From the NCBI GenBank assembly GCA_964562705.1, contig CAZLUI010000004.1, forward strand, positions 1,503-65,502: a stretch of 64,000 nt of DNA, given 5' to 3'. Under the pieces are notes generated by a model. That model had not been told where the DNA came from. It made no database searches and worked only from the letters and a program-made list of their open reading frames with translations. Below, piece after piece: positions 3,287 to 46,634 of this stretch (the stretch's first letter is position 1; each line of letters opens with the position of its first letter). Made by a program: the position numbers and the translations under genes. This DNA is from an uncultured Staphylococcaceae bacterium. Its GTDB lineage: Bacteria > Bacillota_I > Bacilli_A > RFN20 > CAG-826.

Positions 3287-5311
3287 TTATTTTTCATCGA
3301 CTTCTTTAACAGCACGAGCATCATTTAAATGCTCATTTAGAACATCCAGTAGTCTAGTTTCAACACGTTCGATTGTTGTGTTCTTTAGCACTCCAGCGGC
3401 TTGAGTCAAGTGACCGCCACCATTCAGTTGCTCGGCAAGCAATTGCACATTAATTGTTCCATCACTACGGCAAGAAACAGCAACATCTTTCTCACTAATT
3501 TTGCCAATTATAAAGCAGGCATTGACACCACGCATCTGCATGCATTGATTGCCAACTTTAGCAAGCGTTGCTCTTTCAATAATATCGTCTTCATCAGCAA
3601 CACAATAGACAACGCCATAATATGGAGTCTTTAGTGTTGCAATAATCTTTGTAATCAAAGTGTATTCTTCGAATTCATCTTTTAAGAAATCATCAGCGGT
3701 CGAGTTATCAGCTCCATATTCTTTTAGAATCATGGAAGCTTCAAAAGTACGAATGCCACAATTTTTTGATTTGAAGAAATTTGAATCCATGAAGATGCCC
3801 GATAGCATAATCGTAGCATAGCTAGATGGAATAATAATTCTTGGGTTAGCGGAACAATAACGGATTAGTTCTGCTACCATTTCGGAAGCCGATGAAGCGC
3901 TTGGCTCAACATAGCTAAACACTGGAGAATCAACAAATTCTTCACCACGCCTATGGTGATCAATAACCATGACTTTTGTGGCTTTATCTAGTAATTTTGG
4001 TGCCATAGTCATTGACGGTTTATGAACATCACAAACAATAATTAACGTATTGGCTTTGATAAGGTCTTGGGCATCGGAAGGAGTAACAGTTATTTTGTTC
4101 ACTTCTTCTCTAGAGAAGGATGATGTTACTGCTCCTCGGCATTTGCTTTCAGTCAATTTTGGGTCGTAAACAACAACTGAATCTTTTTTGCAATATTCAC
4201 AAATAGATTTCATACCTAAACATGAACCTAGCGAATCCATATCCATGGTTGTATGGCCCATAATAATAACATTAGACGAGTTACGAATAAGCGAAAGGAC
4301 AGAGTCCGCCATAACACGGACTTTAACTTTATTGCGATTCTCTTGGGCTTCGAATTTGCCACCGTAAAACTGCAATTCTTCCCCATATTTAGAAACAACG
4401 ACTTGGTCACCACCTCGTGACATAGCAATATCAATCGCATTTTCGGCCATCTCATTCAACTTTGTCACATCAGGAAATCCGTGTGCTAAACCGATAGATA
4501 GCGTTGGAGGCGTCCCTTCTTTTTCGCCAATATGATGAATATTCTCAATTAGAGAGAAATGATCAGCCTCCATCTTGGCTAAAGAATCATAGTTACACAA
4601 AACAAAATATGCATCATTTCGATAACGACGAATTAATACTTTATAGTTACGGACATATTCAAAAATGGCATTTCTGATTTTGGAAATGACATCATTTGTA
4701 TCGTCAGCGGTGCCGGAAATGTCAGAATAATTATCAATCATTATGATGCCGACAACCATTGCTTGCAATCTGGATTGAGTGTAAATATTTTCGTATTCAG
4801 TTTGATCTTTAAAAATAAATAATCCCGCATCGCTTAAATACTTGACATCATAGTTGCGAGAATTAACTTCTATTTTAACTACCGCCTCAGATGACATGGT
4901 TGCAAACTTTTCAAGTTTTGGTTGCCATTCAAGAATATTGGTATCCAGAATATCAATGGATCTTTGTTTAAACAGGTCGTTTGTCCAAATAACAATGTTA
5001 TTTTCATCCACAATAGCTAATCCAATCATTCCAAAGTTATAGGCTTCTTGAATATCGCCACCAATCAAATCAGCTGCGTGTAAATCGCTTGAACGTCTAA
5101 GCCTTGTCATAATAACTACACCAACCCAAGTTAAAACTAGGTTAAATACAATAAATATGCATGAAATAATATACAAGAAAGGGATTGTAATTTTTGTTTG
5201 AAATTCAAATATATTAGCAGAATAGAAAACACCAAAAATAATTGCAGTCAGTAATTCAATCGAAACAAATATCAAGAAGATTAATCGAAACGTTCTCAGG
5301 TGCTTTTTCAT
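3287..5311 (-). CDS. gdpP: c-di-AMP phosphodiesterase GdpP (YybT): two N-terminal TM helices, PAS-like region, degenerate GGDEF, DHH/DHHA1
   Basis: Hydrophobic N-terminus, DHH motif (MVIDHHRRGE), GGGH near the C-terminus, position upstream of rplI. Confidence 0.9.
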   Translation of the reverse strand: MKKHLRTFRLIFLIFVSIELLTAIIFGVFYSANIFEFQTKITIPFLYIISCIFIVFNLVLTWVGVVIMTRLRRSSDLHAADLIGGDIQEAYNFGMIGLAIVDENNIVIWTNDLFKQRSIDILDTNILEWQPKLEKFATMSSEAVVKIEVNSRNYDVKYLSDAGLFIFKDQTEYENIYTQSRLQAMVVGIIMIDNYSDISGTADDTNDVISKIRNAIFEYVRNYKVLIRRYRNDAYFVLCNYDSLAKMEADHFSLIENIHHIGEKEGTPPTLSIGLAHGFPDVTKLNEMAENAIDIAMSRGGDQVVVSKYGEELQFYGGKFEAQENRNKVKVRVMADSVLSLIRNSSNVIIMGHTTMDMDSLGSCLGMKSICEYCKKDSVVVYDPKLTESKCRGAVTSSFSREEVNKITVTPSDAQDLIKANTLIIVCDVHKPSMTMAPKLLDKATKVMVIDHHRRGEEFVDSPVFSYVEPSASSASEMVAELIRYCSANPRIIIPSSYATIMLSGIFMDSNFFKSKNCGIRTFEASMILKEYGADNSTADDFLKDEFEEYTLITKIIATLKTPYYGVVYCVADEDDIIERATLAKVGNQCMQMRGVNACFIIGKISEKDVAVSCRSDGTINVQLLAEQLNGGGHLTQAAGVLKNTTIERVETRLLDVLNEHLNDARAVKEVDEK

Positions 5312-6395: not shown

Positions 6396-6458
6396 AACAA
6401 AAGAAAAGACAAACGTTTTGAGGCGTTTGTCTTTTTTAAAATGCAAATAAATTACTTA

Positions 6459-8240
6459 TTAACTAGCACGGTAAAGTTGTGGAAGCAACATTGTTGGGCC
6501 TGTGGCTGATGCGTAATTAAGGAATCTTGGGGAAGAAACGTTATATAAAATTCTTCCATAGGCAGTTGTTGCACTTTGAATTGTCGCATTTCCAGTTGCT
6601 GAGTCAATTGAGATATCCCAAGAGGTATCTCCACTATCCCAGGCAGCTTTCTTAGCAGCTGTTGCACCTAATAATTTAGATGAGTATGAAAGTGTCCAAG
6701 CACCGCTTGCACCACCCAAAGTTAACGCGATAGAATCAGCACCTAAACTAGAGATTGTTGAGCCATCGGCAGCAAAGGTTGAGGCAACAGATGATAAGAA
6801 GACATTTGTGCCACTAAAGTCACCAGCTGTGAAACCGGTGTTTGAAGCGAGAACAAGGACATCGCCAACTGCTAATGTTGAAGCATCAGAAACAAGTGAA
6901 TATGTGACTGACACTGGAGCACTTAAAGCGATTGAAACTGGATCAGAAGTGACTGAACCAACTGAAACGGTGATTGATTTGGATTCACCATCAGCTTCCA
7001 CAAATGTATATGGAAGTGTAACTGAACATGTGTAATCAGCAAATGCAGCATCTTCAGCTCCGCTTGCACGGACTGCTTTGACGACTAATTCACTAGCAGT
7101 AAGGGTTTCACCATATTTCTTGGCAGTTGGTGCACTTGTAATAACAAGTGAAGCAACTGGATCAGCAGCGGCGATAACGATTGAAATTGCAGCAGAGACA
7201 ACACCATTTGCAGTTGCGGTAACAGTGACTGTTCCATCGGCAGTTGCGGTTAATACTGAACCTGCAATTGTTGCAAACTCAGAACCAGAAGCGATTTGAT
7301 ATGTAACTGCATCAGCAGCTGCTGATGGTGTTAAGTTAGCACTTAAGTTAACTGTATCGCCAACATAAACTGATGATTTATCAGCAACACATTCAACGCC
7401 TGTAGCGTGGACAGCGTGTTCTGTTGAAGAAACGATAATCATCTCATTCCAAGCAGTATCACTGCCAATGAGATAAGCTTTGACATCATAGTATTTGTCA
7501 ACGTTTTCAGCAACACCAATGGTTGAGACTGATTCACGAGCATATTTTGTTGCTTCTGAATAGTCTGTACCATCAACAAATTTTAAGTTGTAGTAGGTAC
7601 CGTTTTTGTAGACTTTAACAAGACCAGTAATCATTGTTAATCTTGATGAAGCAATACTGAATGCATCCCAGGATGCAAGTGTCATGGCTGAACCTTCTGG
7701 TACAGCGATGTGTGGGTCAGTGCCTTCGCCTGCAGCAATAACAATACCATCTTTACTGATTTGGCGGTTACCATGATAAGTTGAGGTTGTTCCAGAGACT
7801 CTGACGAAATCTCCAACTGCTTTTCCTGTATCTGTACCTTTGTAAGCGTAGATAGCGCCTGTTGCATCAGCAACAACAATACCTTTAGCAGTGACTGCTG
7901 TAACGCTTCCTTCAATGACAACTGCTTGTTCAGCTGCTAAAGCATAAACTTCTGCAATTGTTGAAACAGAAACAACTGGATCGGTACTTGAACTAGAGCT
8001 TGATTCTGAGCTGGAGCTTGAGCTTGATTCTGAACTTGAACTTGAGCTTGATTCTGAACTTGAACTAGAGCTTGATTCTGAGCTGGAGCTTGAACTTGAT
8101 TCTGAGCTGGAGCTTGAACTTGATTCTGAAGTTGTGCTTGTATCAGAACTTGATGACGAGCTGCTTGATGATGGGTTTTCACCACATCCAGTCAACGCGA
8201 GCATAACGGCTGGTAATAGAACGAATAATTTTTTATTCAT
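6459..8240 (-). CDS. surface lipoprotein with Ser-rich low-complexity repeats, a possible OB-fold region and Big_2-like Ig domains
   Basis: Signal peptide plus lipobox (LALTGC); (SSSSSSSE)x6 repeat; Big_2-like block (VYVGDTVNLSANLTPS...TVTVTATANG); noticeably GC/Ala/Thr/Ser-rich relative to its neighbours. Confidence 0.7.
   Translation of the reverse strand: MNKKLFVLLPAVMLALTGCGENPSSSSSSSSSDTSTTSESSSSSSSESSSSSSSESSSSSSSESSSSSSSESSSSSSSESSSSSSTDPVVSVSTIAEVYALAAEQAVVIEGSVTAVTAKGIVVADATGAIYAYKGTDTGKAVGDFVRVSGTTSTYHGNRQISKDGIVIAAGEGTDPHIAVPEGSAMTLASWDAFSIASSRLTMITGLVKVYKNGTYYNLKFVDGTDYSEATKYARESVSTIGVAENVDKYYDVKAYLIGSDTAWNEMIIVSSTEHAVHATGVECVADKSSVYVGDTVNLSANLTPSAAADAVTYQIASGSEFATIAGSVLTATADGTVTVTATANGVVSAAISIVIAAADPVASLVITSAPTAKKYGETLTASELVVKAVRASGAEDAAFADYTCSVTLPYTFVEADGESKSITVSVGSVTSDPVSIALSAPVSVTYSLVSDASTLAVGDVLVLASNTGFTAGDFSGTNVFLSSVASTFAADGSTISSLGADSIALTLGGASGAWTLSYSSKLLGATAAKKAAWDSGDTSWDISIDSATGNATIQSATTAYGRILYNVSSPRFLNYASATGPTMLLPQLYRAS
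7988..8135. repeat. about six tandem copies of a 24-bp unit (gattctga[ga]ct[gt]ga[ga]cttga[ag]ctt) encoding SSSSSSSE inside the lipoprotein gene
   Basis: Direct reading of the sequence; the unit periodicity matches the 8-aa protein repeat. Confidence 0.85.
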
Positions 8241-8498
8241 TATTAGTAATTCCTCCTTTTCTATTACTTATATTAAGTGGTAATGAAATCGTACGTTTTC
8301 CGTTACGCACAAAATAACGTTATAAAAATAACTTAATAAACTTATCAACATTCTTCGCAAAGCAAAATAATGTTTTCATGTACTAATATGTTAACATATT
8401 CTTCATTTGTTGCAAGAATTGAAAATTAATATGGTGACAATATGGGCATGTGTAGCCAATAGCAAACACTTCCATATAGGAGTATATTGTTTTGTATT

Positions 8499-9632
8499 AT
8501 GAGTGAAATAAAAAATAGGAATACTACTTTTTCTCTTTTATACATAGTGGGAATAGTGTTGGTTCTTTATAGACACTTTTGTCAGGGGCAAAATTTAATT
8601 TTTGAATATCTATTCATAACTAGCACGTACCTAGTTTATATTTTCTTTTTTTCGTCTGGTTATTTCTATAAAACAGACTCAGAGAGCCACCCGTTTAAGT
8701 ACATATGGCGAAAATTTTTAAAGCTAATAGTCCCTTATTTTATTGGCACAATAGCGTACGGAATAATTGGTATATTTGTTAAAGATTATTTACCAGATTA
8801 TCCAATCGCTCCTTTTACTTTTAAAACTGTAACGTACATCTCGTTAGTTAACGGCCTTCAGTTCTTTTTTAATTTAGGAGCTTGGATTTTAGTTTCTTTA
8901 TTTCTAAATGAAGTCATATATATGCTGCTTAGCAAAATATTAAAATTTAAGCATAAAGAATTGGTAATTTTTGGAGTATTTTTAGCAATTGGTATTGGAG
9001 GCTTGTACCTTTCATCGGATCCTATAAATTTTGAATGGAAATTGTTTATAGTTAGATTAATGGTTTCTTTACCATTCTACTCACTTGGTAACATCTACCG
9101 AGTATACTTAGAAAAAAATGATATCAAGATAAGCGCTTTGATAAAACTAATTACTTATATTGCTATTTTTGCAGTCGTTTCCATTTGCAACAACGGATTA
9201 CCAGTCGACTACGTTCCGTCTACCGGGAATGGTCTAACAACAAATCCAATGATTTATTATTTGTTATCTTTCGCTTCTATTCATTTCTGGCTTATTATTT
9301 GCACAAAATTATCAAAGTCCTTCGAAAATAATAAAACTGTTGATTATATAGCAAGCCATACTTTTTCAATTATGATGAACCATTTATTTGCTGTTTTTCT
9401 TTTAAAGTTGTTCTTTTATTCGATATCAGACCATCTAAATAATTTTTCAGTAGAAGCGTTTAAGGGTGACTGTTGGTATTTATATATGCCCTATGGAAAT
9501 AGAGGATTTGTAATTTTGTACATAATTTGGGCAATAGCGTTCTCACTCTTATTGTCATACCTATATTCCCTATTAAAAAAGGGGGTAATTAAATCTTTTA
9601 AAAGCATACAACATGTATTGTGTAAAAAATAA
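8499..9632 (+). CDS. polytopic membrane protein, probable acyltransferase family 3 (OatA-like)
   Basis: About 10 predicted TM helices, extremely AT-rich with F/Y/I bias; an N-terminal ...YRHF... region resembles the acyltransferase_3 start. Start is uncertain: the track uses a TTG at 8487, whereas the ATG at 8499 lies 15 nt from an AGGAG. Confidence 0.45.
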   Translation: MSEIKNRNTTFSLLYIVGIVLVLYRHFCQGQNLIFEYLFITSTYLVYIFFFSSGYFYKTDSESHPFKYIWRKFLKLIVPYFIGTIAYGIIGIFVKDYLPDYPIAPFTFKTVTYISLVNGLQFFFNLGAWILVSLFLNEVIYMLLSKILKFKHKELVIFGVFLAIGIGGLYLSSDPINFEWKLFIVRLMVSLPFYSLGNIYRVYLEKNDIKISALIKLITYIAIFAVVSICNNGLPVDYVPSTGNGLTTNPMIYYLLSFASIHFWLIICTKLSKSFENNKTVDYIASHTFSIMMNHLFAVFLLKLFFYSISDHLNNFSVEAFKGDCWYLYMPYGNRGFVILYIIWAIAFSLLLSYLYSLLKKGVIKSFKSIQHVLCKK

Positions 9633-9673
9633 AATAAAAAGCCCTGCAGTTTCCTACAGAGCTAATTAGCATT

Positions 9674-9750
9674 TATGGTTGTCTAAGGTCAGTTATTCAA
9701 TTTGGTCTAAAATTCTCCATTCACAATTATGTCGTACAACTTAGACTTCG
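9674..9750. repeat. 77-bp direct repeat, copy 1 (left boundary of the accessory island); continues into an 11-bp-stem hairpin tctccattcac/gtgaatggaga
   Basis: Identical to 12856-12932. Copy 1 alone has the right hairpin arm at 9750-9760. Confidence 0.9.
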
Positions 9751-9861
9751 TGAATGGAGACTTTTGAATCCACAAACCTTTCGCCTGTTGGGTAAAAAAG
9801 ATTTACGCAAAGCAGCAATTTAAACTGGTTTTAATGAAAGTTAATCTGATAAAATCTGTCG

Positions 9862-11151
9862 TTATTTAAATATGCTTCTAATTAATGAATATCTCGTATC
9901 ATACATTATATTCTTTAGAGCTAAATTGTTCTCGTACGAAACGGATAACAACTTGCTGACTTTATCAGACATTTCTGAAGCTGAAATACTAATTTTTCTT
10001 AGCTGGTTATTAATGGTGGAAAAACCATCATAGAGAGTAGTTTGTAATCTTTCAAGATTAATGTTTGCTTTGGTTAAGTTCAATATTACTTTTGCACGAT
10101 ATTTTTCTTCTTCAAATAAATTAATTGCTTCTTTCCAATTATCTGCTCTTCCACTTTCCAAAAGTTCGATAACAGCAGATAGTACCTCAACAGTTCTATA
10201 TTCAACAGGAACGTTAAACATTTGTTCAAATAAGATTTTTTTATCCATTAAATCTGCATAACTGTTTATCATTTCATGGAAATGTTCTTTTACATAATTA
10301 AATCGTTCTGAATGCAACTTAAAAAATGCGTCTCTTTTTTTAACAGCGTCTCTTATACATTCTGAAACTTGGTGACCGATGGGTAGAGTCGTTTTTTCTG
10401 TCACAGTTTTTGTTGCATCGCTAAAAAAACTAGCCACTAACACTCTGCGAGTTCTAGTTCGAGTAATTACAACGTCGGCAACATCGTTTGGAGCGTTTTT
10501 AATGAAGTCAAAGACATTACTGTCTCCACCAAGCAAACTATCACCAAGGTTTTTTTCATATTTGTTATCAACTGTGGACAAAGAATATGTTATCTCATCT
10601 TCGCTTCCAAAATTTTTTGCTCTGTCTTGTTCGTACGCTTCATCAAACAACTTTTCTAATCTTTTATATAATTCACCGTCATAACTAAATAACTCGTCGT
10701 AAAAGTTGTAAGGTGGCATATCGAAGAAGAATAACTTTCTTCTCATAACAGAATCCCAGTTAAGGTTAAGATCAGAAAATTCTATATTCTCTTTTAGATG
10801 AATTTGCTGATTTCTTATAAAGTCCCCATTCATATTCCAAAACTCATGGGAGTTAATTTTATATTCAGCAGGGTCATCTAAGTTTGTGTCGCACAAAAAC
10901 CAACACTCATAGCCGGTAAATGCATTGATATATTGCACCCAGTTTTTCAAAATTGAAATCAATTGACTTTTATTAACCTCTTTGGGATCGGATTTGATTT
11001 GAATTGCGTCGCTAGTTTTTTCTTCAACTTCTGTAAGAAGTTTTTTTGCTTCTTCTAGAGAATATTCCGTCCCACAATCTTGGCAAACAAAAACTCCATT
11101 TTCCTTCTTTATTGACTGACTTCCACATATTTCACAAACCATTTTTTTCAT
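9862..11151 (-). CDS. hypothetical protein with N-terminal zinc ribbon (CEICGS...CQDCGT), 429 aa; the remainder has no recognisable family
   Basis: Long clean ORF; the CxxC-x14-CxxC lies at residues 6-26; overlaps the upstream gene by 4 nt (translational coupling). Confidence 0.6.
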   Translation of the reverse strand: MKKMVCEICGSQSIKKENGVFVCQDCGTEYSLEEAKKLLTEVEEKTSDAIQIKSDPKEVNKSQLISILKNWVQYINAFTGYECWFLCDTNLDDPAEYKINSHEFWNMNGDFIRNQQIHLKENIEFSDLNLNWDSVMRRKLFFFDMPPYNFYDELFSYDGELYKRLEKLFDEAYEQDRAKNFGSEDEITYSLSTVDNKYEKNLGDSLLGGDSNVFDFIKNAPNDVADVVITRTRTRRVLVASFFSDATKTVTEKTTLPIGHQVSECIRDAVKKRDAFFKLHSERFNYVKEHFHEMINSYADLMDKKILFEQMFNVPVEYRTVEVLSAVIELLESGRADNWKEAINLFEEEKYRAKVILNLTKANINLERLQTTLYDGFSTINNQLRKISISASEMSDKVSKLLSVSYENNLALKNIMYDTRYSLIRSIFK

Positions 11152-11567
11152 CTTTCGCTTACTCCTTTCAACACTTTTGCAGTCTTTTTCTTAAAGTCGA
11201 TTGAATAGTAAAAAATATTTTTTCCTTTATTTTGAAGCAAAAACCTATTAGAAAGCATAGAAACATTGTTACTTTTGAAAACAATAATCACCGAATCATT
11301 TGACAATTGTGTTTCGGTAAAACGCCCGCATCCTATTACTTTGGACGATACACTATTAAAATGCGTTTCATATATATAATCGTTAACAAATACGATAGCC
11401 GAATTGTTTTTTCTATTTTTTAAAAAAACCGGATTACGAATATAAGAATTAATTTGAATATTGTACTTATAAAAATCATTAATTGCTTTCTCAATGCTTT
11501 CAGAAATCGCGCTTAAGTCTTCCTCGTCTACAAATAATCTTAAAAGGCATTCATTTTCGACATCCAT
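11148..11567 (-). CDS. hypothetical protein (139 aa), first gene of a two-gene operon with the zinc-ribbon protein
   Basis: ORF whose stop overlaps the start of the downstream gene; no recognisable motifs. Confidence 0.5.
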   Translation of the reverse strand: MDVENECLLRLFVDEEDLSAISESIEKAINDFYKYNIQINSYIRNPVFLKNRKNNSAIVFVNDYIYETHFNSVSSKVIGCGRFTETQLSNDSVIIVFKSNNVSMLSNRFLLQNKGKNIFYYSIDFKKKTAKVLKGVSER

Positions 11568-12197
11568 ATTTAGATTTATTTTAGTCTACTAACAAACTAA
11601 TAACAAGCACTTTAAAGCACTTAATTTATAACGATTTAGACTTAGCCCACGGACTTTTTCATATGCTTTGAGTTGTAATCTGCGAACCATTTACAAACTT
11701 AGCAATTTTAAATTGGTTAGAAAATGAGTGACCAAAAGAAACATTGTCGCCTTAACCCGTCATTAGAGTTTTTGGAGTTTTGCTTGAGTAAACACCAAAT
11801 TCGGTTTTTTTCACTAAATTCGGCATAAAGATAACTAAGCGACATTAAAAACAAGATAAATTGTAATCTTAAGTGCAACACTTCGATATAGCTTCAGACC
11901 GGTCTTTAAAAACGGGGCGCGGAATGTTAGTAAGTAAGGTATTTGTTAGGTCTATGTGATAAAGCTTGGTGGTGAGTTTGTTTGGAGCTTTAAACTGAGT
12001 TTTATGATAGCTGTGGTCTGATGTAAGTATGAAGTGAGAGCTTGTGTGTTTATATAAATATAACTTGCGGGCTGAGAGAGTATATTTTGGTGGAGTTGGG
12101 CGGGTAAGTATTAATAAGAAAGACTAAATAAAAAGTAAGTAAAATATAGTTTGTTTTTTTATAAGGGCGGGGAGAGAAGAATTAGTTAGTAAGTATT

Positions 12198-12231
12198 AAA
12201 AAAAGATCTAAGGTTAGTAGATCTTTTTTTA
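12198..12231. terminator. bidirectional intrinsic terminator (A7-agatcta-aggttag-tagatct-T7) within repeat unit 1
   Basis: Perfect 7-bp stem flanked by an A-run and a T-run. Confidence 0.7.
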
Positions 12232-12733
12232 GTTTTGTATGTAAGTATCTATGTTAATTATTGAATAGAGTTTTGTGTCTAAGTTTGAATAATTTGTTTT
12301 AGATAATTACATGACTGTCGTTGTCCAAGCTCGCCCATCCAGTTTTGTCTGAGGTCGCCCATCCATATTATGTCGTGTTTTGAGACAGTCGGGAGCGGGC
12401 GAATACGAATTATTTTTGCTGTGGGACGGAAGCTTTGCAGAAGACGTGTTTTGAGCTGCAGCCTGGTATTTGCTTAGGTATTGCGACAAAGCTTCTGTAT
12501 GGGCTTGTTTGATAGCTTAAAATGAGTCTGGTCGCAGGGTTTAAGCAAGGGCGGCAGGCTGGGCGGTTGAGGGGAGGTTTATATTAATATATAAGGTGAG
12601 GTAAGTAAGTATTATTTGTCTATATAGGATGAGAGTAAGTAAGTTGGTTGTTCTATATATATGGGAAATAAGTAAGTGAAAAGATATATATGACTAATAT
12701 TTTTTTATAGGGGCGGGGAGAGAAAGAAAGTAT

Positions 12734-12765
12734 AAAAAAGATCTATGGGTGAGATAGATCTTAAT
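12734..12765. terminator. bidirectional intrinsic terminator (A6-agatctat-gggtgag-atagatct-T-rich) within repeat unit 2
   Basis: Perfect 8-bp stem with an A-run upstream and a T-rich tract downstream. Confidence 0.65.
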
Positions 12766-12855
12766 TTGTTGTTTTGTTGTTAATAATTATCTATGTTTGT
12801 TGAATAATAATGTTTAGACTATTTTGAATGATTTGATTTAGATAATTACAATGAC

Positions 12856-12932
12856 TATGGTTGTCTAAGGTCAGTTATTCAATTTGGTCTAAAATTCTCC
12901 ATTCACAATTATGTCGTACAACTTAGACTTCG
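12856..12932. repeat. 77-bp direct repeat, copy 2 (right boundary of the island core); lacks the right hairpin arm seen in copy 1
   Basis: Identical to 9674-9750. Internally made of two ~22-bp subrepeats (ttgtctaaggtcagttattca / ttggtctaaaattctccattca). Confidence 0.9.
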
Positions 12933-12977
12933 CGAATAAGAAAAAACCAGGCTTTTACACCTGGCTAGTTTGGAATT

Positions 12978-13409
12978 TTAGAATTCTAGTTTTTTGCCTT
13001 TAAGACAATCTTCCGTGCTTGGCTCTGGTACACCACTACAACTCATTTCACTTTCTATTTCCAGAATCGGCTTGTATAGAAGATCTAATGTGTATAAGTC
13101 TTTGGCAATTGTTTCATATAGTTTTTTACGCTGCCCCACAAAACACTGACCTATTGCTTTAGCAATGTTAAGTAGAAAAGCCGATGTAATATCATGAGGA
13201 GTAGGTTCGCACCCCCAAAGCATAGATGTTTCCATGTCATAGTCATACTTCATTACTGACTGTTTAAACAACATTTCAAATCTACTATTACTTTCTTCCT
13301 TATATTCATCTTTAGTTTCTATAAGTTTATAAATAGTTGAACCTTTACCTTCTGGCCAAATACGCTCCAATTCCTTAAGCATCCATTCTTTTTTCATCCA
13401 TTCTTCCAT
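12978..13409 (-). CDS. hypothetical protein (143 aa), acidic/K-rich, no known family
   Basis: ORF with RBS aaagga about 9 nt upstream of the ATG; preceded by a conserved ~40-bp motif shared with the next gene. Confidence 0.5.
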   Translation of the reverse strand: MEEWMKKEWMLKELERIWPEGKGSTIYKLIETKDEYKEESNSRFEMLFKQSVMKYDYDMETSMLWGCEPTPHDITSAFLLNIAKAIGQCFVGQRKKLYETIAKDLYTLDLLYKPILEIESEMSCSGVPEPSTEDCLKGKKLEF

Positions 13410-13478
13410 AAATAATTTTCCTTTCTGTCATTTAAGACGCCACTATTATGTAATTTTTAGAAGTTCAAATGGTCGCTT

Positions 13479-13793
13479 CTATTGAGACAAAATATTTTCT
13501 GCATCTAATGTGAAATACAAAGTATCAATTGACTCATATTCACTACTTTCTATGGTTATTGAATTGTTACTTCTAAACCACACAATAAACTCTCTAGCTC
13601 CAATATTGAACTCGTTGATTTTTAGATCAGTAATAACAAATTTTAAAGTTGAATACCCATCCCTGTGATTAACTCTATTGGTACAAAGCACAACCGCATA
13701 GAAACCGATTTTTTCTAAGTCGCCATACCTATATTTTTTACCCGGTATAAATTTAAATTCATTCATACTTTTTTTCTCCTTTCGTGCCTCCAT
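13479..13793 (-). CDS. hypothetical protein (104 aa in the track). A better start is probably the internal MNEFKF (ATG at 13766, ~95 aa), which has aaggag 9 nt upstream.
   Basis: ORF; a strong SD precedes the internal ATG and none precedes the first ATG. Confidence 0.45.
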   Translation of the reverse strand: MEARKEKKSMNEFKFIPGKKYRYGDLEKIGFYAVVLCTNRVNHRDGYSTLKFVITDLKINEFNIGAREFIVWFRSNNSITIESSEYESIDTLYFTLDAENILSQ

Positions 13794-14017
13794 TATGAAT
13801 CTTTTGTAGTTTTAAATGGTCGCGTCCAGAGAGACAAAAAACTTACTCGCTAATAAATTGCTTACTTTAGTAACAAACGTGCGACAATGGACTCCTAAAG
13901 CAACAAAAAAGACCTGCACAGAAGCAGATCTCTTTATTAATTTTATAGCTGCCCACGCCGAATGGACGTTTTTGGCCAACTTCGGATAAGTGACTTTGGA
14001 CAACTACAGCATTCAAA

Positions 14018-14245
14018 TTAGTCTTGAATGTATGGTAGTAAACCCATGAAGCGGGCGTTTTTGATTGCTTTAGCCAGCTCTCTTTGATACTTAGCACATG
14101 TGCCAGTAGCGTGACGAGCGGCAATCTTACCGTTTGGAGTAATGAATTTGCTTAATAATTCAACATCCTTATAATCGATATGATCAATTTTATTCTTGGT
14201 AAAGTAACAAACCTTTTTGTGAGGTCTAATTTTCTTGAATCCCAT
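14018..14245 (-). CDS. rpsR: 30S ribosomal protein S18
   Basis: [41 protein letters not shown]...ARFMGLLPY. Confidence 0.95.
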
Positions 14246-14259
14246 TTTAATTTTCCTTT

Positions 14260-14682
14260 CTAGAACGGAAGGTCATCATCGGCGACATCAATAGAATCGA
14301 GATTCTTGCTATCGTCTACTGCTGGTTCATCTAGTGGAACTTCCTCATTAGGAATTTCTTTTGATTTTGGTTCAAGGAATTGAACTGAATCAGCAATTAC
14401 TTCAATGACAGAGCCTTTTGTTCCATCTCTTCTCTCGAATGTTCTTTGATGGATTCTACCATCAACACCGACGAGTGAGCCTTTGCGGCAATATTTTGCA
14501 ACGTTATCTGCTTGTTGATTCCAAACAGTAACTCCAATAAATGTAGTGGTCTTTTGGCCATTAGCATCTTTCATGCGATCATCCACTGCAATTGTGAATG
14601 AAGCAACTGGAACATCAGAAGTTGTTCTTCTTAGTTCTGGGTCGCGGGTTAGTCTACCCACGAGAATGATTCGATTAATCAT
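14260..14682 (-). CDS. ssb: single-stranded DNA-binding protein
   Basis: [20 protein letters not shown]-fold N-terminus, acidic C-terminal tail ending DDLPF. Confidence 0.95.
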
Positions 14683-40545: not shown

Positions 40546-40581
40546 GTGATAGTATACTTTGTTTACAAAAGAGGACAATAT

Positions 40582-41940
40582 ATGGCTGAAACTATCTCTG
40601 AACTTGGTCGCATTTGGGCGAAAGTTCTGGAAAATCTAGAAATGAAAATAGATGATCGCCGTTTTTTCGATGTCTTCCTTAGCGAATCAAGCATTTATTC
40701 ATTAGATGGAAATCAGATGTTGGTATCTGTTAGCTCCAGTTTGGCTGCTACGATTTTATCAACTAAATACTTGAGTACGATTCAGGATGCTGTAAAAGAC
40801 GTCACAAACCAAACAATTAAGGTAAAATTTGAAAATAGTGATAATTTGAAAGCAATTGCCAAACCGGTAACTGAAGAAGCTAAATATTTTAAGTATTCAA
40901 TAGTCAAACCAACACTTACTTTTGACAATTTTATTACCGGTTCATGCAATATTGAGGCGAAACAAGCTTCAATTTTAATTGCTAAAAACCCAGGAAGCAG
41001 AGACTATAATCCTTTATTTATATATTCAGATTCAGGTTTGGGAAAAACTCACCTTCTATCCGCGATTGTTAATTACCTAAAGGAATCGGCGTCGGGTAAA
41101 AAGACCTTGTACTGTGCTGCGTCTGATTTTCTTGAAGAATACCTTCTTGTCGCTAATGGCGAAAAAGAATTCAACAAATTAAAAGATTATATCGTCAGCC
41201 ACGATGTGTTGTTAATTGACGATGTTCAAATGCTTGGTGGAAAAGAGAAAACAACCGATTATTTATTCCAGATTTTCCAAAAGATGTATAACGGAGGAAA
41301 ACAAATTGTTATCACTAGTGATAAGCATCCTAGTGAATTGAAAGGTTTTGACGAAAGACTTAAATCAAGATTTGCTGGCGGTCTTTCGATCTCGATTGGA
41401 GCACCAGACGTTCAAACCTGCATCTCAATCCTAAAATCGAAAATTGATGCAGGACCAATCGAACTTAGTGCATTTGATGAGAATGTCCTTGAATTTATTG
41501 GACAAAAATTCTCCAAAAATATTCGCAACATTGATGAGGCATTGAATAAATTGGTGTTTTACACCACAACATTCAAGCCAACCAAGCATATCGATATGGA
41601 AGTAGCTATGGAAGCCTTGCAGCCGCTCCTCGACGTGAGAGTTGAAAAACAAAGATTAAGTGAACAAAAAATTATTAGTGTTGTTGCCGATTATTACAAC
41701 TTAACCCCTTCTCAAGTTACAGGAAACTCAAGACAAGGGCAAATCGCTCTCGCTAGGCATATATCCATGTATTTAATTAGAAGCATGCTCGATGTTCCAT
41801 TTACAAAAATTGGCATGACGTTCGGTGGCAAGGATCACTCCACGGTAATGAACGGTGTAGTAAAAGTGGAAAATGAGTCGAAAATTAATCAGACATTGCA
41901 AGAGGCGTTAGTCGAATTAAAGAAACGACTAAAATCCTAG
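40582..41940 (+). CDS. dnaA: chromosomal replication initiator DnaA
   Basis: MAETISELGRIWAKVLENL with RBS aaagagga; AAA+ GLGKTHLL; C-terminal DNA-binding helix-turn-helix. The track ORF starts 36 nt earlier without an SD. Confidence 0.97.
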   Translation: MAETISELGRIWAKVLENLEMKIDDRRFFDVFLSESSIYSLDGNQMLVSVSSSLAATILSTKYLSTIQDAVKDVTNQTIKVKFENSDNLKAIAKPVTEEAKYFKYSIVKPTLTFDNFITGSCNIEAKQASILIAKNPGSRDYNPLFIYSDSGLGKTHLLSAIVNYLKESASGKKTLYCAASDFLEEYLLVANGEKEFNKLKDYIVSHDVLLIDDVQMLGGKEKTTDYLFQIFQKMYNGGKQIVITSDKHPSELKGFDERLKSRFAGGLSISIGAPDVQTCISILKSKIDAGPIELSAFDENVLEFIGQKFSKNIRNIDEALNKLVFYTTTFKPTKHIDMEVAMEALQPLLDVRVEKQRLSEQKIISVVADYYNLTPSQVTGNSRQGQIALARHISMYLIRSMLDVPFTKIGMTFGGKDHSTVMNGVVKVENESKINQTLQEALVELKKRLKS

Positions 41941-42072
41941 TATTTATTTTATAAATTGAATACACATACAGGCAATAGCGTGATAGAATGGAAATACAAA
42001 ACAAACTAGTTTTCCACACAATCCACAGGCATTACTATTATTAATATATTTGAAAGGAATAAATAAATAATT
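41941..42072. promoter_or_regulatory. oriC: oriC part 2: dnaA-dnaN intergenic region with tandem DnaA boxes plus an AT-rich putative DNA unwinding element
   Basis: TTTTCCACA at 42010-18 immediately followed by CAATCCACA at 42019-27, then attactattattaatatatt. Confidence 0.75.
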
Positions 42073-43179
42073 ATGAGATTTACCGCAAACCGAGAATACT
42101 TACTCAAAGCATTGATGATGGTTTCGAAAGCTGTTCCTCAAAAAGCTGAACTACCAATTCTACAAAACGTCAAGATATCTCTTAACGAAAGAGGACTTGA
42201 ATTTGTTGGAAGTGATAACAATATAACAATCAGAACCTCCGTACCTTATATGGTGAATGATGTTGAATTAATCAAAAATGCCAAACCTGGTGAAACATTA
42301 GTTCAATGCAAATTATTACTAGAAATTATTAGACACTCTGAAAGTGAATTTATTGATTTCGAATTAATTGACAACTCAATTCTCAAAATCGCTTATGGTG
42401 ATACGGTCAATAAACCAAACACAATTAGAGTTGAAGAATATCCGGAAATTGATTTTAACTCAAATGGGGCCTCTTTCGATATCAAGACAACCGATATATC
42501 AAGATTGGTTGAACAGACCGCCTTTGCGGCCTCTACGAAAGAAACAAGACCAATTTTAACCGCGGTCAACCTTGAAGCTCACGAAGGTTTACTGACAGCG
42601 ACCGCCACCGACACAGCAAGGTTAGCTAGAAAAACGATTGATATTGAATGTGCCTCAAGTTTCAACGCTAACATTCCTGCCAAGAAATTGTTAGATATTG
42701 TCCACTCTTTTGAAGGTGAAGAATTTGTATCAATCGCTATTAGCGATAAAAAAGCATTGTTCTCGTTTGGCAATACTATAATTTCTACACGTTTAATCAA
42801 TGGCGATTATCCGAACACAAAAAACATTGTTCCGAAAACTTTCAATTACCACCTCGAAGTCAACTCGAGGGAATTCTTGTCAGCCATGGAAAGAGTTTCT
42901 TTGTTTGGTGGAATTATCAAATTGATTATGACAGAAGATGAAGTTGAGTTAATTTCTAGATCATCGATCGTCGGTTCTGCCAATGTTAAATTATCAACAT
43001 TCCAATTCTCTGGTGAAAGATTAGAAATCTCGTTCAATTCAGTTTTTGTTGCTGATGCGATAAAAGCTGTTGCAAGCGAGGATGTCACTATTTCCTTCAT
43101 TGGCGAAATGAAGCCGTTCGTTGTTAAGAATGTCAAAGATGATAGTGTTGATATGTTAGTCACCCCATTACGTTCATAA
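42073..43179 (+). CDS. dnaN: DNA polymerase III beta sliding clamp
   Basis: MRFTANREYLLKALMMVSKAV...; 368 aa; follows dnaA. Confidence 0.95.
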   Translation: MRFTANREYLLKALMMVSKAVPQKAELPILQNVKISLNERGLEFVGSDNNITIRTSVPYMVNDVELIKNAKPGETLVQCKLLLEIIRHSESEFIDFELIDNSILKIAYGDTVNKPNTIRVEEYPEIDFNSNGASFDIKTTDISRLVEQTAFAASTKETRPILTAVNLEAHEGLLTATATDTARLARKTIDIECASSFNANIPAKKLLDIVHSFEGEEFVSIAISDKKALFSFGNTIISTRLINGDYPNTKNIVPKTFNYHLEVNSREFLSAMERVSLFGGIIKLIMTEDEVELISRSSIVGSANVKLSTFQFSGERLEISFNSVFVADAIKAVASEDVTISFIGEMKPFVVKNVKDDSVDMLVTPLRS

Positions 43180-43285
43180 ACCTCCAAAAATAAGTCGTTT
43201 TTACATATTGGAATTCAAGGGAATTTATTATTCCCTTTTATTTTTATATATGATAAAATTATTTTTGAGGAGTAAACATCTTTTT

Positions 43286-43504
43286 ATGGATAAAAAACCT
43301 ATCGAGGTCAAAATCGCCTCTGAATTCATTACTTTGGGCCAATTTTTGAAGTATGCTGACATCATTCAATCCGGTGGTGAAGCAAAACCTTATCTTCAAA
43401 CTGCTCATGTTGTAATTAATGACGTGGAAGATAATCGCCGAGGTCGCAAAATTCGTCCCGGTGACAAAGTTGAAATTGATTCTAAGGTTTATCTTGTTTC
43501 TTAA
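43286..43504 (+). CDS. yaaA: S4-domain RNA-binding protein YaaA
   Basis: MDKKPIEVKIASEFITLGQFLKY...; RBS gaggag; dnaN-yaaA-recF synteny. The track ORF starts earlier at 43208. Confidence 0.85.
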   Translation: MDKKPIEVKIASEFITLGQFLKYADIIQSGGEAKPYLQTAHVVINDVEDNRRGRKIRPGDKVEIDSKVYLVS

Positions 43505-43506
43505 AA

Positions 43507-44580
43507 ATGTTTGTTTCAAAACTCGTTCTTAGGAATTTCCGGAACTACGGATGGCTCGAATTGGAGTTCTCGCCAAAGATGAATGTTATTGTTGGTGACA
43601 ACGCTGAAGGAAAGACAAATATTGTAGAAGCTATTCACTTTCTCTCTTTGGCACGATCCTTCCGAACCAACGAATTTGCGGATTTAATAATGAAATCGCG
43701 CCAATTCGCCACGATTGAGGCCAGGGTTGAGCAATTAACCACAAAGAAAGAAATAACGGCTCTATTAACTCCATCTGGCAAAAAGATAAGCTGTAACGGA
43801 AAACCGGTTCGGCGCATATCGGAATTATCGAGTCTCATTAATGTGATAGTCTTTGAACCCAAAGATGCGTTAATGTTCAACGATTCACCAATAGTCCGCC
43901 GAAACTTTATGGACATTAGTATTTCAAAGAAATCGCCTTTATATCTTGAAAACCTGATGATCTATGAAAAATTACTTCGAGAAAGAAACCTTCTTCTCAA
44001 AAACGAAAATGTTGATTTAACTCAATTAAATGTGGTTACTCAACAAATTGTCGCCGCATCTGAGGAAATTGTGAAATATCGCTGTACATTCGTAAGCGAG
44101 ATTAATCGCATATTATCAAAGATAACGACACAGTTAAAAGGCGAAACAGAAGAAGCACATCTTGTATATGAGCCATTTGTCAAATGCGATGAACATTTCA
44201 AACAAAATGGTACGCGCATGTACGAGCGCGCATTAGAAAGTGATAGAAAACGTCGAATGACTCAGGTTGGCATTCACCGCGAAGACATCAAAATGTTCTT
44301 AAACGGATATGACATTTCTTCACATGGTAGTCAGGGCGAAAACAGAATTGTTGTTATTGCCTTAAAGTTAGCTCCTTACTTCTTAATAGAAGATAAAGAA
44401 TTGAGACCAATTGTTGTTCTAGATGATGTATTGTCTGAATTGGACAAGGAGCACAAAGAAAGGTTAATCGCCTTTCTAAGGAAGTTTGAACAAGTGTTCA
44501 TTACTTCCACATCAGCACAAATTAATAACGCTTCAATATTCGAAGTGAAAAAGCATACAGTTACAAGGAGGAATGCTTAA
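43507..44580 (+). CDS. recF: DNA replication and repair protein RecF
   Basis: [47 protein letters not shown]. Confidence 0.95.
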
Positions 44581-46619
44581 TGGAAGAAAAAGAGAAAATT
44601 GAATCTACTCTTAAAGATGACGAAGTCAGAGATGATTCCATCGAAGTAGATGTCCCAATGGACGAGAAAGAGGACCGCGCTAATGAAAAGTACACCGCGA
44701 CCAATATTCAAGTCTTAGAGGGTCTAGAGGCTGTCAGAAAACGTCCTGGCATGTACATCGGTACAACCGCTTCACCAGGTCTTCACCATCTAGTATGGGA
44801 AATTGTCGATAACTCAATCGACGAAGCCTTAGCTGGCTACTGCGACAAGATTATTGTCACAATTAATAAAGGTAACACTATCAGCGTCATAGATAATGGC
44901 CGTGGTGTTCCAGTAGACATCGTTGCTAAATCAGGTCTTTCCGGCGTTGAAACAGTCTTCACCATTCTCCACGCGGGTGGTAAGTTCGGCGAAGCTGGCG
45001 GATACAAAGTATCTGGTGGTCTACACGGTGTCGGCGCATCTGTTGTTAATGCCTTATCTGAATGGATGGAAGTAACTGTCCACAAAGATGGCGGTATTTA
45101 CTACATTAAGTTCGGTCGTGGTGGAAAGCCAATCGATCACTTAAAACGTATTGGTGATTGCAAAGACACAGGCACAACCGTCACTTTCAAACCAGATGAC
45201 ACAATCTTTACCGAAACAACCGAATACGATTACGACATTATTTGTGACCACTTAAAACAAATGGCCTACCTTAACAAAGGCGTTAAGATTGAAGTCAACG
45301 ATGATCGTGGTGATACAAGAAAAACTGAAGTTTACTGCTATGAAGGCGGTATTATTCAATATGTCAAAGATATCAACGCAAACAAAGGGCCTATCATGGA
45401 AGAAGTTATCTATTGTGAAGGTCGTGGAGTTTACGAAGTAAACGCAGAATCAAAAGGCCACATTAAATGTGAAGTTGCTATTCAATACAACGAATCATAC
45501 AATCCGACCATATTCTCTTTCTGCAACAACATTCATACACATGAAGGTGGTACTCACGAAGAAGGATTCCGTCTTGCTATTAGACGTGTTTTAAATGAAT
45601 ACGCACGCAGTTATAAATTCATCAAAGAAGACCAAGAAGATTTTGAAACATCTGATCTTCTTGAAGGTATGACTTGTATTGTTAGTGTGAAACACCCTAA
45701 CCCACAATACGAAGGACAAACAAAGACTAAACTTGGCAACAGCGAAGTTAGAAAAATTGTTTCACAAGTAGTTGGTGAACACTTAAAGAAATTCCTCCTT
45801 GAAAATCCAAAAGCTGCCGACATCATCATGAACAAGTTGCTAACAGCTGCCAAAGCTCGTATTGCTGCTAAAAATGCTCGTGAATCAGTTCGTAGAAATA
45901 CTGGATTAGAATTAACTACTCTTCCTGGAAAACTAGCCGATTGCTCAAGCAAAGATCCTAATATTTGTGAATTATACATTGTTGAAGGTAACTCCGCTGG
46001 TGGTTCTGCTAAAAACGGCCGCGATAGAAATACCCAAGCAATTCTTCCACTTCGTGGAAAAATTCTAAACGTTGAAAAAGCAACAATTGATAAAGCGTTT
46101 GCTAACGCTGAAATTGGCAACATGATTACCGCTATCGGTGCTGGTGTTGACCCAGAATTTAACGCCGAAAAAATTCGTTATCACAAAATCGTTATTATGA
46201 CCGATGCTGATGTTGACGGCAGCCACATTCGTATCTTGTTGTTAACATTCTTCTATCGCTACATGAAGGAACTCATTGAAAAAGGCTTTGTTTATATTGC
46301 TCAACCACCACTCTACAAAGTAGAGAATCATGGCAAACAATACTATGCCTATAACGATGAACAACTTGATGTGTTAAAGAAACAGCTTAACCTTAAACCT
46401 GGATTCCCATTCCAACGTTATAAAGGTCTTGGCGAAATGGATGCGGAACAACTTTGGGAAACAACCATGGATCCAAAAGCACGTAAGATGCTAAGAGTTC
46501 AATTAAGTGATGCTATCGAGGCTGATAAAGTATTCACAGATTTAATGGGTGATGAAGTTATGCCTCGTAAAGATTTCATTCACAAAAATGCCAAGTTCGT
46601 TAAGAATTTAGACATTTAA
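44580..46619 (+). CDS. gyrB: DNA gyrase subunit B
   Basis: [24 protein letters not shown]; [11 protein letters not shown]; Toprim domain; ~35-aa acidic N-terminal extension (the alternative start at MDEKED, 44658, is possible). Confidence 0.97.
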
Positions 46620-46634
46620 TGAAAGGAGAATTAT

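Follow-up and report, generated by a model that had tools for sequence, protein, structure and literature searches.

Three head-to-tail cassettes with inverted, multi-repeat ends behind rpsR in an uncultured Staphylococcaceae bacterium

We analyzed a 64,000-nt stretch of DNA (hereafter "the window"; assembly GCA_964562705.1, contig CAZLUI010000004.1, positions 1,503 to 65,502) from an uncultured Staphylococcaceae bacterium. On its minus strand, the 3′ end of rpsR, which encodes ribosomal protein S18, is separated from a convergent acyltransferase gene by a block that contains four genes, non-coding DNA and two identical 77-bp direct repeats. The evidence below indicates that these repeats are, very probably, termini of stacked, inserted mobile cassettes.

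The cassette array between rpsR and the acyltransferase gene

A repeat search aligned 9674-9755 with 12856-12937 as an 82-nt direct pair with one mismatch (81/82), the first 77 nt being identical. The 45-nt core of the 77-mer had exactly two matches in the window and none in 100 shuffles. Each copy consists of two subrepeats of ~22-24 bp, and a diverged direct third copy is present at 12316-12390. Copy 1 is followed by a hairpin (arms 9709-9724 and 9750-9765, 94% complementary), whereas copy 2 diverges there. An earlier reading made from the sequence alone had described the 77-bp identity with similarity just beyond it, the hairpin after copy 1 only, the paired subrepeats and the diverged third version, and all of these were reproduced. 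The identical ends have a technical consequence: short-read (k=31) contigs L002 and L113-L116 break exactly within the 77-mer, L002 (3165 bp) spanning the 3105 unique bases that separate the copies and retaining 30 nt of the repeat at either edge, and assemblies of the locus are therefore fragmented.

A weak inverted match revealed a fourth copy on the minus strand, directly 3′ of the rpsR stop codon. A position weight matrix (PWM) built from the copies detected six sites in the window (plus strand: 9674, 12316 and 12856; minus strand: 14008, 12850 and 12311) with scores of 47-63, vs. a best score of 8.3 in shuffles, and no further end-like site elsewhere in the 64 kb. Three of the six, running on the minus strand from 14008 to 13958, 12850 to 12800 and 12311 to 12261, are inverted partners that had been missed before. 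The six ends group into three inverted pairs, one per cassette, in which an rpsR-proximal end (TGTA...) is matched by a distal end in inverted orientation. The block is thus composed of three head-to-tail cassettes, E3 (9674-12311), E2 (12316-12850) and E1 (12856-14008). In the orientation of rpsR (minus strand of the window) the order is rpsR-AATGC-E1-GTCAT-E2-GTCA-E3-AATGC-acyltransferase terminator. Both 77-mers are distal ends, one belonging to E3 and the other to E1, and are in direct orientation because these cassettes lie head-to-tail. What had been called a repetitive region is E2 together with the E2-like left part of E3. A dispersed repeat resembling repetitive extragenic palindromes, the case that would have spoken against a mobile element, was not found: all six copies are inside the island and none is elsewhere in the window. 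The features of the locus are as follows.

9669..9673, plus strand: target-site duplication copy 1, GCATT on the plus strand and AATGC in rpsR orientation (from empty-site comparison and blastn)
9674..9750, plus strand: E3 distal end (copy 1), two ~24-bp subrepeats and a conserved CACAATTATGTCGT tail
9750..9765, plus strand: inverted third half-site, forming an 11-16-bp hairpin with 9709-9724, in E3 only
9862..11151, minus strand: E3 cargo gene, 429 aa
11148..11567, minus strand: E3 cargo gene, 139 aa, no family match, 4-nt overlap with the start of the 429-aa gene
11900..12311, minus strand: E2-like backbone of E3, with a CCCCGCCC box and a tract poor in C on the plus strand
12197-12231, minus strand: E3 terminator hairpin with perfect 14-bp arms
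12261-12311, minus strand: E3 proximal end (PWM scan)
12312..12315, plus strand: 4-bp spacer TGAC between E3 proximal and E2 distal ends
12316..12850, minus strand: cassette E2, 535 bp, non-coding, resembling a miniature inverted-repeat transposable element (MITE)
12316-12390: E2 distal end
~12400-12565: E2 conserved core
12739-12761: E2 hairpin
12800-12850, minus strand: E2 proximal end
12851..12855, plus strand: 5-bp spacer ATGAC between E2 proximal and E1 distal ends
12856..12932, plus strand: E1 distal end (copy 2)
12945-12966: terminator after the 143-aa gene
12978..13409, minus strand: E1 cargo gene, 143 aa, no family match
13479..13793, minus strand: E1 cargo gene, 104 aa, no family match
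13906..13935, minus strand: intrinsic terminator just inside the E1 proximal end, replacing the native rpsR terminator
13958..14008, minus strand: E1 proximal end (TGTAGTTGTCCAAAGTC...), starting 9 nt past the rpsR stop codon
14009..14013, minus strand: target-site duplication copy 2, AATGC
14018..14245, minus strand: rpsR (S18), whose 3′ flank is the insertion site

The filled site was compared with contigs encoding exactly the same S18 protein, six with the island and four without it (L010, L011, L012 and L014). In the four empty-site contigs, rpsR is directly followed by the terminator belonging to the convergent acyltransferase gene: TTTGAATGC is followed immediately, at the insertion point, by TAATTAGC, and the sequence across the site in all four is caagacTAAtttgAATGC joined to TAATTAGCTCTGTAGG. 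The filled site in the window reads ...tttgAATGC(TGTAG.....CCATA)AATGCtaattagc, the block being given in parentheses, and AATGC is found on both sides of it. Filled and empty sites differ by exactly 9674-14008 (4,335 bp) plus the duplicated AATGC. In blastn of the empty contigs against the window, the rpsR side was 99.0-99.6% identical in all four; the alignments met at 14008 and 9673, and 6 query bases aligned to both flanks. This gives a duplication of 5 bp, or of 6 bp with the shared T included. The insertion point is 9 nt after the rpsR stop codon. The flank on the acyltransferase side (6436-9673) was 99.3-99.7% identical to L011 and L014; its identity to L010 and L012 was only 95-96%, and 6436-6913 did not align. 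The neighbors of the array, rpsR and the acyltransferase gene, are native neighbors in the empty-site strains, and the 4,335-bp block is a presence/absence polymorphism within one species. The proposal of a mobile or integrative origin for the repeats was thus upheld; the proposal that they are attachment (att) scars flanking a single element at 9674-12932 was not, the inserted block being 9674-14008.

Two observations concern the surroundings of the array. A 593-aa lipoprotein (6459-8240) has a long (SSSSSSE)n tract, and its length varies from 589 to 597 aa between strains. The window contains dnaA, dnaN, recF, gyrB and gyrA at 40546-49208, with yidC, jag and mnmE on the other side, and therefore spans the replication-origin region; the array is ~27 kb from dnaA.

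Searches of Pfam, PADLOC and PHROGs with the four island proteins gave a zinc-ribbon signal only. The AlphaFold model of the 429-aa protein (mean predicted local distance difference test score 81) shows a zinc ribbon at the N-terminus, followed by a middle domain of alpha/beta type and a long C-terminus made of helices; Foldseek of this model against PDB gave no match at E ≤ 0.001. The protein belongs to an orphan family of ~88 clusters (homologues P0133-P0219) with an invariant N-terminal CxxC...CxxC and no Pfam domain. Genes of its homologues adjoin MqsA, DUF2971, DUF3800, Macro and NTP-transferase genes, and their upstream partners differ. These neighbors, of toxin-antitoxin (TA) or defense-like type, suggest an accessory or defense-type role, and we treated the protein as cargo. 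The island encodes no Rep protein and no helix-turn-helix (HTH) regulator. In E1, a 62-nt direct repeat (13439-13500 and 13786-13847, 73% identical) lies just upstream of each cargo gene, reading TTTTGTCTC..GCGACCATTT.AA...CATAAT.G.GGC on the coding strand, and might serve both E1 genes as a promoter, operator or leader.

Elements with the same ends at other loci

A search of one genome per species with a degenerate two-subrepeat pattern yielded eight loci, 7/8 of them in Erysipelotrichia, Erysipelotrichaceae or Bacilli metagenome-assembled genomes (MAGs). A metagenome scan yielded five more loci, and a translated piece of the E2 core, used as a handle, two more contexts. Of four end patterns run against viral contigs, three had no match; the 54 hits of the remaining one all failed the PWM and were due to chance.

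Comparison of 25 ends from 10 or more loci showed a shared core, T.T.GTTGTCYAA-N7-ATYC-N6-G.CTRAA-N6-CATYC. Both end types are built of two ~24-bp subrepeats (TTGTCYAAR..ATYC) in direct orientation, presumably the binding sites of a transposase, and the distal ends have an extra conserved tail. All proximal ends (12/12) start with TGT, and the distal ends (n=13) start with TGT (7), TAT (3), TAA (2) or TGA (1), giving a TGT start in 19 of the 25.

Cassettes with these ends occupy the same rpsR site in the same orientation in other species. In L018 and L019, elements are present directly after rpsF-ssb-rpsR with the proximal end toward rpsR. L018 has a 531-bp E2-like element next to rpsR, with TGAAG on both sides and abutting an older cassette; this is an independent clean insertion. 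In L019, one cassette is a 219-bp version of E1 without cargo, and another carries a CitMHS transporter gene. At five loci the proximal end faces rpsR and starts 35-39 nt after the AIKNAR(F/I)M codons, a distance that is kept although the C-terminal tails of rpsR and the intervening bases differ. The insertions are 5-12 nt after the rpsR stop codon. Head-to-tail arrays were found in L018, L019, L024/L021, L026, L028 and L049. Cargo at the related loci comprises ORF6N, HTH regulators, an MNT-HepT pair, Fic, the CitMHS transporter and lipoproteins, or is absent.

A possible second attachment site is the 3′ flank of a RumA/TRAM-type rRNA methyltransferase gene. An E2-like element starts 10 nt after its stop codon in L016 (4426-4986), L027 (2853-3413) and L050 (7052-7612), with the proximal end toward the gene and no visible matching target duplication. 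No such ends were found in species with 75-77% rpsR identity. In a species with 82%-identical S18, the DNA right after rpsR differs between strains (L055 ~4998-5130, L054 9231-9350); one allele opens with a TGT-type end of a different kind (TGTGACGGGACGAAGTCG...) and then a terminator, and in two contigs the assembly ends immediately behind rpsR. A wider superfamily may use the rpsR flank as a hotspot.

E2-like elements are 456-561 bp long with high identity in several species, and contain no conserved open reading frame (ORF). They are 85-95% identical across four MAG species, with a nearly invariant core (12400-12565; also in L016, L018, L026 and L049), which indicates recent spread. The core contains a long imperfect hairpin, and 11900-12800 is C-poor on the plus strand (GC skew +0.6 to +0.75). 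A structured RNA was considered for the core and rejected on its weak folding z-scores (-0.6 and -1.9). An Rfam search of the whole window at gathering threshold returned signal recognition particle RNA only, and a search of 9000-14500 at E-values up to 10 returned nothing credible. An RNA guide was likewise rejected: complementarity of the E2/E3 non-coding DNA to the att region was not above chance. E2 had no match in plasmid and phage collections. A sigma-70-like site (TTGAAT-N17-TACAAT, 12824-12852) is assembled across the E2/E1 junction, with the -35 element in the E2 proximal end and the -10 element spanning end and spacer, and reads into the E1 distal end.

Proposed mechanism and alternative explanations

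Insertion with a short duplication, inverted multi-repeat termini, site and orientation specificity, stacking and recent inter-species spread were observed directly; the class of the enzyme is inferred from the anatomy of the DNA. We consider it probable that the cassettes are non-autonomous, are mobilized in trans by a Tn7/Mu-type transposase, and are targeted by the 3′ end of rpsR. The specific assignment to Tn7-like elements is more tentative. The cassettes would be moved by a DDE transposase of the TnsB/MuA/TniA kind, for which three features speak: a staggered 5-bp cut whose sequence is arbitrary (AATGC, TGAAG), TGT termini, and ends with multiple sites. The fixed position behind a conserved gene suggests a selector of TnsD/TniQ type, which would recognize the conserved 3′ end of the rpsR coding sequence much as TnsD acts at glmS. 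The array may have been built by serial insertions at one att position, regenerating the same 5 bp at each junction, after which the stack would have moved as a composite, via its outermost proximal and distal ends, into the AATGC site. Such a history predicts identical inner spacers and a new outer duplication, as seen: both inner spacers are GTCAT/GTCA (ATGAC/TGAC on the plus strand) and the outer duplication, AATGC, differs.

Several observations weigh against transposition in trans. No transposase, AAA+ regulator, TniQ/TnsD, integrase or other recombinase was found in the four island proteins, in any ORF ≥150 aa of the window, which encodes housekeeping functions including dnaA-dnaN-recF-gyrBA, or in the cargo of ~15 related loci. 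Inter-cassette spacers in other arrays are 0-8 bp, and some elements (e.g., L016/L027, L019 and L024) have no matching duplication. The distal ends of E1 and E3 start with TATGG rather than TGT. Only two clear subrepeats are present per end, vs. three and four in Tn7. A 5-6-bp duplication is also expected from a short crossover core shared by the partners of a site-specific recombinase. A related possibility is a new system of uncultured Erysipelotrichia/Bacilli in which transposition stacks small cassettes lacking a transposase, some with cargo and some without, at a dedicated site behind rpsR, so that transposon ends build something like an integron gene-capture array; its trans-acting machinery would be no recognizable Tn7 set, and the highly conserved non-coding E2 may have a cis or RNA role in targeting or mobilization. 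This is in our judgment rather doubtful.

The strongest competing explanation is site-specific recombination of an integron-like or Xer-like kind, in which the junction of distal end, spacer and proximal end is a single recombination site, cassettes excise as circles and integrate conservatively beside rpsR, and the 5 bp are the crossover core. The junctions are indeed imperfect palindromes (GACAAC.ACA-N4-5-TGT..TT.TC) with arm-like subrepeats, and the arrays are strictly head-to-tail at one chromosomal site. This explanation retains some weight because of the weak points listed above and because no transposase was found in the window or at the related loci. However, the spacers have no conserved sequence (AATGC, GTCAT, CTTCA, GCGTT, ATCAA...) and range from 0 to 8 bp, whereas tyrosine recombinases require a matching overlap of fixed length. 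The empty site has no convincing half-sites, no integrase is encoded beside any array or in the window, and the ends lack the R″/R′ cores of attC (RYYYAAC / GTTRRRY). Because of the unconserved spacers, the empty site without half-sites and the lack of a recombinase accompanying the arrays, we rate this explanation lower and regard it as unlikely.

A second alternative is that the 77-mers are a functionless product of recent local duplication or gene conversion, serving only as substrates for a RecA-dependent 3.2-kb deletion. Their 100% identity over 77 bp, vs. ~70% for the other ends in the window, is in its favor, and 77 bp is long enough for homologous recombination. However, the same type of distal end, ~90% identical, terminates unrelated cassettes in another species (L019), and each 77-mer is paired with an inverted proximal end; we therefore consider it very unlikely that duplication is the whole explanation. 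Gene conversion between the E3 and E1 distal ends may account for their perfect identity, but not for the existence of the ends. The sequence-only reading had also raised the 3.2-kb deletion, which could still occur between the repeats; among the contigs inspected, we saw no variant with that deletion, which would have the order rpsR-E1-acyltransferase, and none with E1 only.

That the repeats are operator or iteron arrays, as had also been suggested, or 5′ parts of small RNAs transcribed from the TTGAAT-N17-TACAAT site, is highly unlikely: this promoter-like site lies just upstream of copy 2 and a weaker one upstream of copy 3, terminator-like hairpins follow, and the E2 core is strongly conserved, but copy 1 has no such promoter, the Rfam and folding results above give no support, no replication initiator or regulator gene is present, and the inverted pairs bounding the insertions are left unexplained. 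RNA produced from the ends could in any case be compatible with mobility.

Relation to known elements and significance

The cassettes can be compared with several known systems. Tn7-like elements carry arrays of transposase-binding sites in their ends, and adjacent insertions produce several left and right ends (PMC8649781). The resemblance to this group (Tn7 at glmS via TnsD, Tn5053/Tn402, Tn6022 and CRISPR-associated transposons) extends to the 5-bp duplication (AATGC here and TGAAG in L018, several other junctions not being clean) and, less clearly, to TGT termini (19 of 25 ends) and asymmetric ends of several ~20-24-bp direct repeats, with fewer sites per end than in Tn7. It also extends to insertion in a single orientation, a nearly constant distance downstream of a conserved essential gene that stays intact, to diverse accessory, TA and defense-like cargo, and to stacking at one site, end-only remnants and att-site islands built by adjacent insertions being known for the group. 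The differences are that no copy here contains tnsA/B/C or tniQ, the cassettes are tiny (0.2-2.6 kb), some distal ends start with TAT or TAA, and insertion is 5-12 nt past the stop codon vs. ~25 nt for Tn7. Because they encode no TnsB, TnsC or TniQ/TnsD, the cassettes are at most non-autonomous Tn7-like derivatives.

E2 has the terminal inverted repeats, target duplication, lack of a transposase and multiple related copies that define MITEs, and its relatives in L016, L018, L026, L049 and L050 are counted as MITE-like, those in L016/L027 showing no visible matching duplication. As a short non-coding element, E2 also resembles other non-autonomous derivatives such as Tn3-derived inverted-repeat miniature elements and integron mobilization units. 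Unlike MITEs, which are dispersed, the elements described here insert with site and orientation specificity, and some members carry one or two genes; with their cargo genes, E1 and E3 exceed the usual MITE size.

Integron arrays similarly consist of small, promoter-poor cassettes with varied or no cargo, arranged head-to-tail at one site and separated by imperfectly palindromic junction elements. However, there is no intI in the window and there are no attC cores in the ends, the target duplication is of arbitrary sequence, each cassette brings its own terminator, and expression of the cargo from a common promoter is not obvious. Tandem copies and circle junctions of the insertion sequences IS21 and IS30 likewise have ends abutted with only a few bp between them, and they too assemble a -35/-10 pair at the junction; in the cassettes the -35 element (TTGAAT) belongs to the proximal end and the -10 element (TACA+AT) crosses the spacer. 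The two differ in that the cassettes have no transposase gene, are targeted behind rpsR and not to their own inverted repeats alone, and have a spacer equal in length to the 5-bp duplication instead of 2-3 bp. The kind of element, non-autonomous, with Tn7-type ends and stacked at an att site, is thus known; our literature searches returned no account of a transposon att site at rpsR, or of Tn7-like elements in this host clade.

With these findings, a puzzling repeat pair becomes part of a mobile-DNA system whose boundaries are exactly defined and whose insertion site, behind an essential ribosomal gene close to the replication origin, is conserved. In practical terms, the identity of the 77-mers causes short-read assemblies to break here. 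If the trans-acting enzyme is found, it would define, for a clade that is mostly uncultured and little studied, a new module for transposition to a specific att site, and would explain the shuffling of TA, defense-like and transporter genes in these bacteria.

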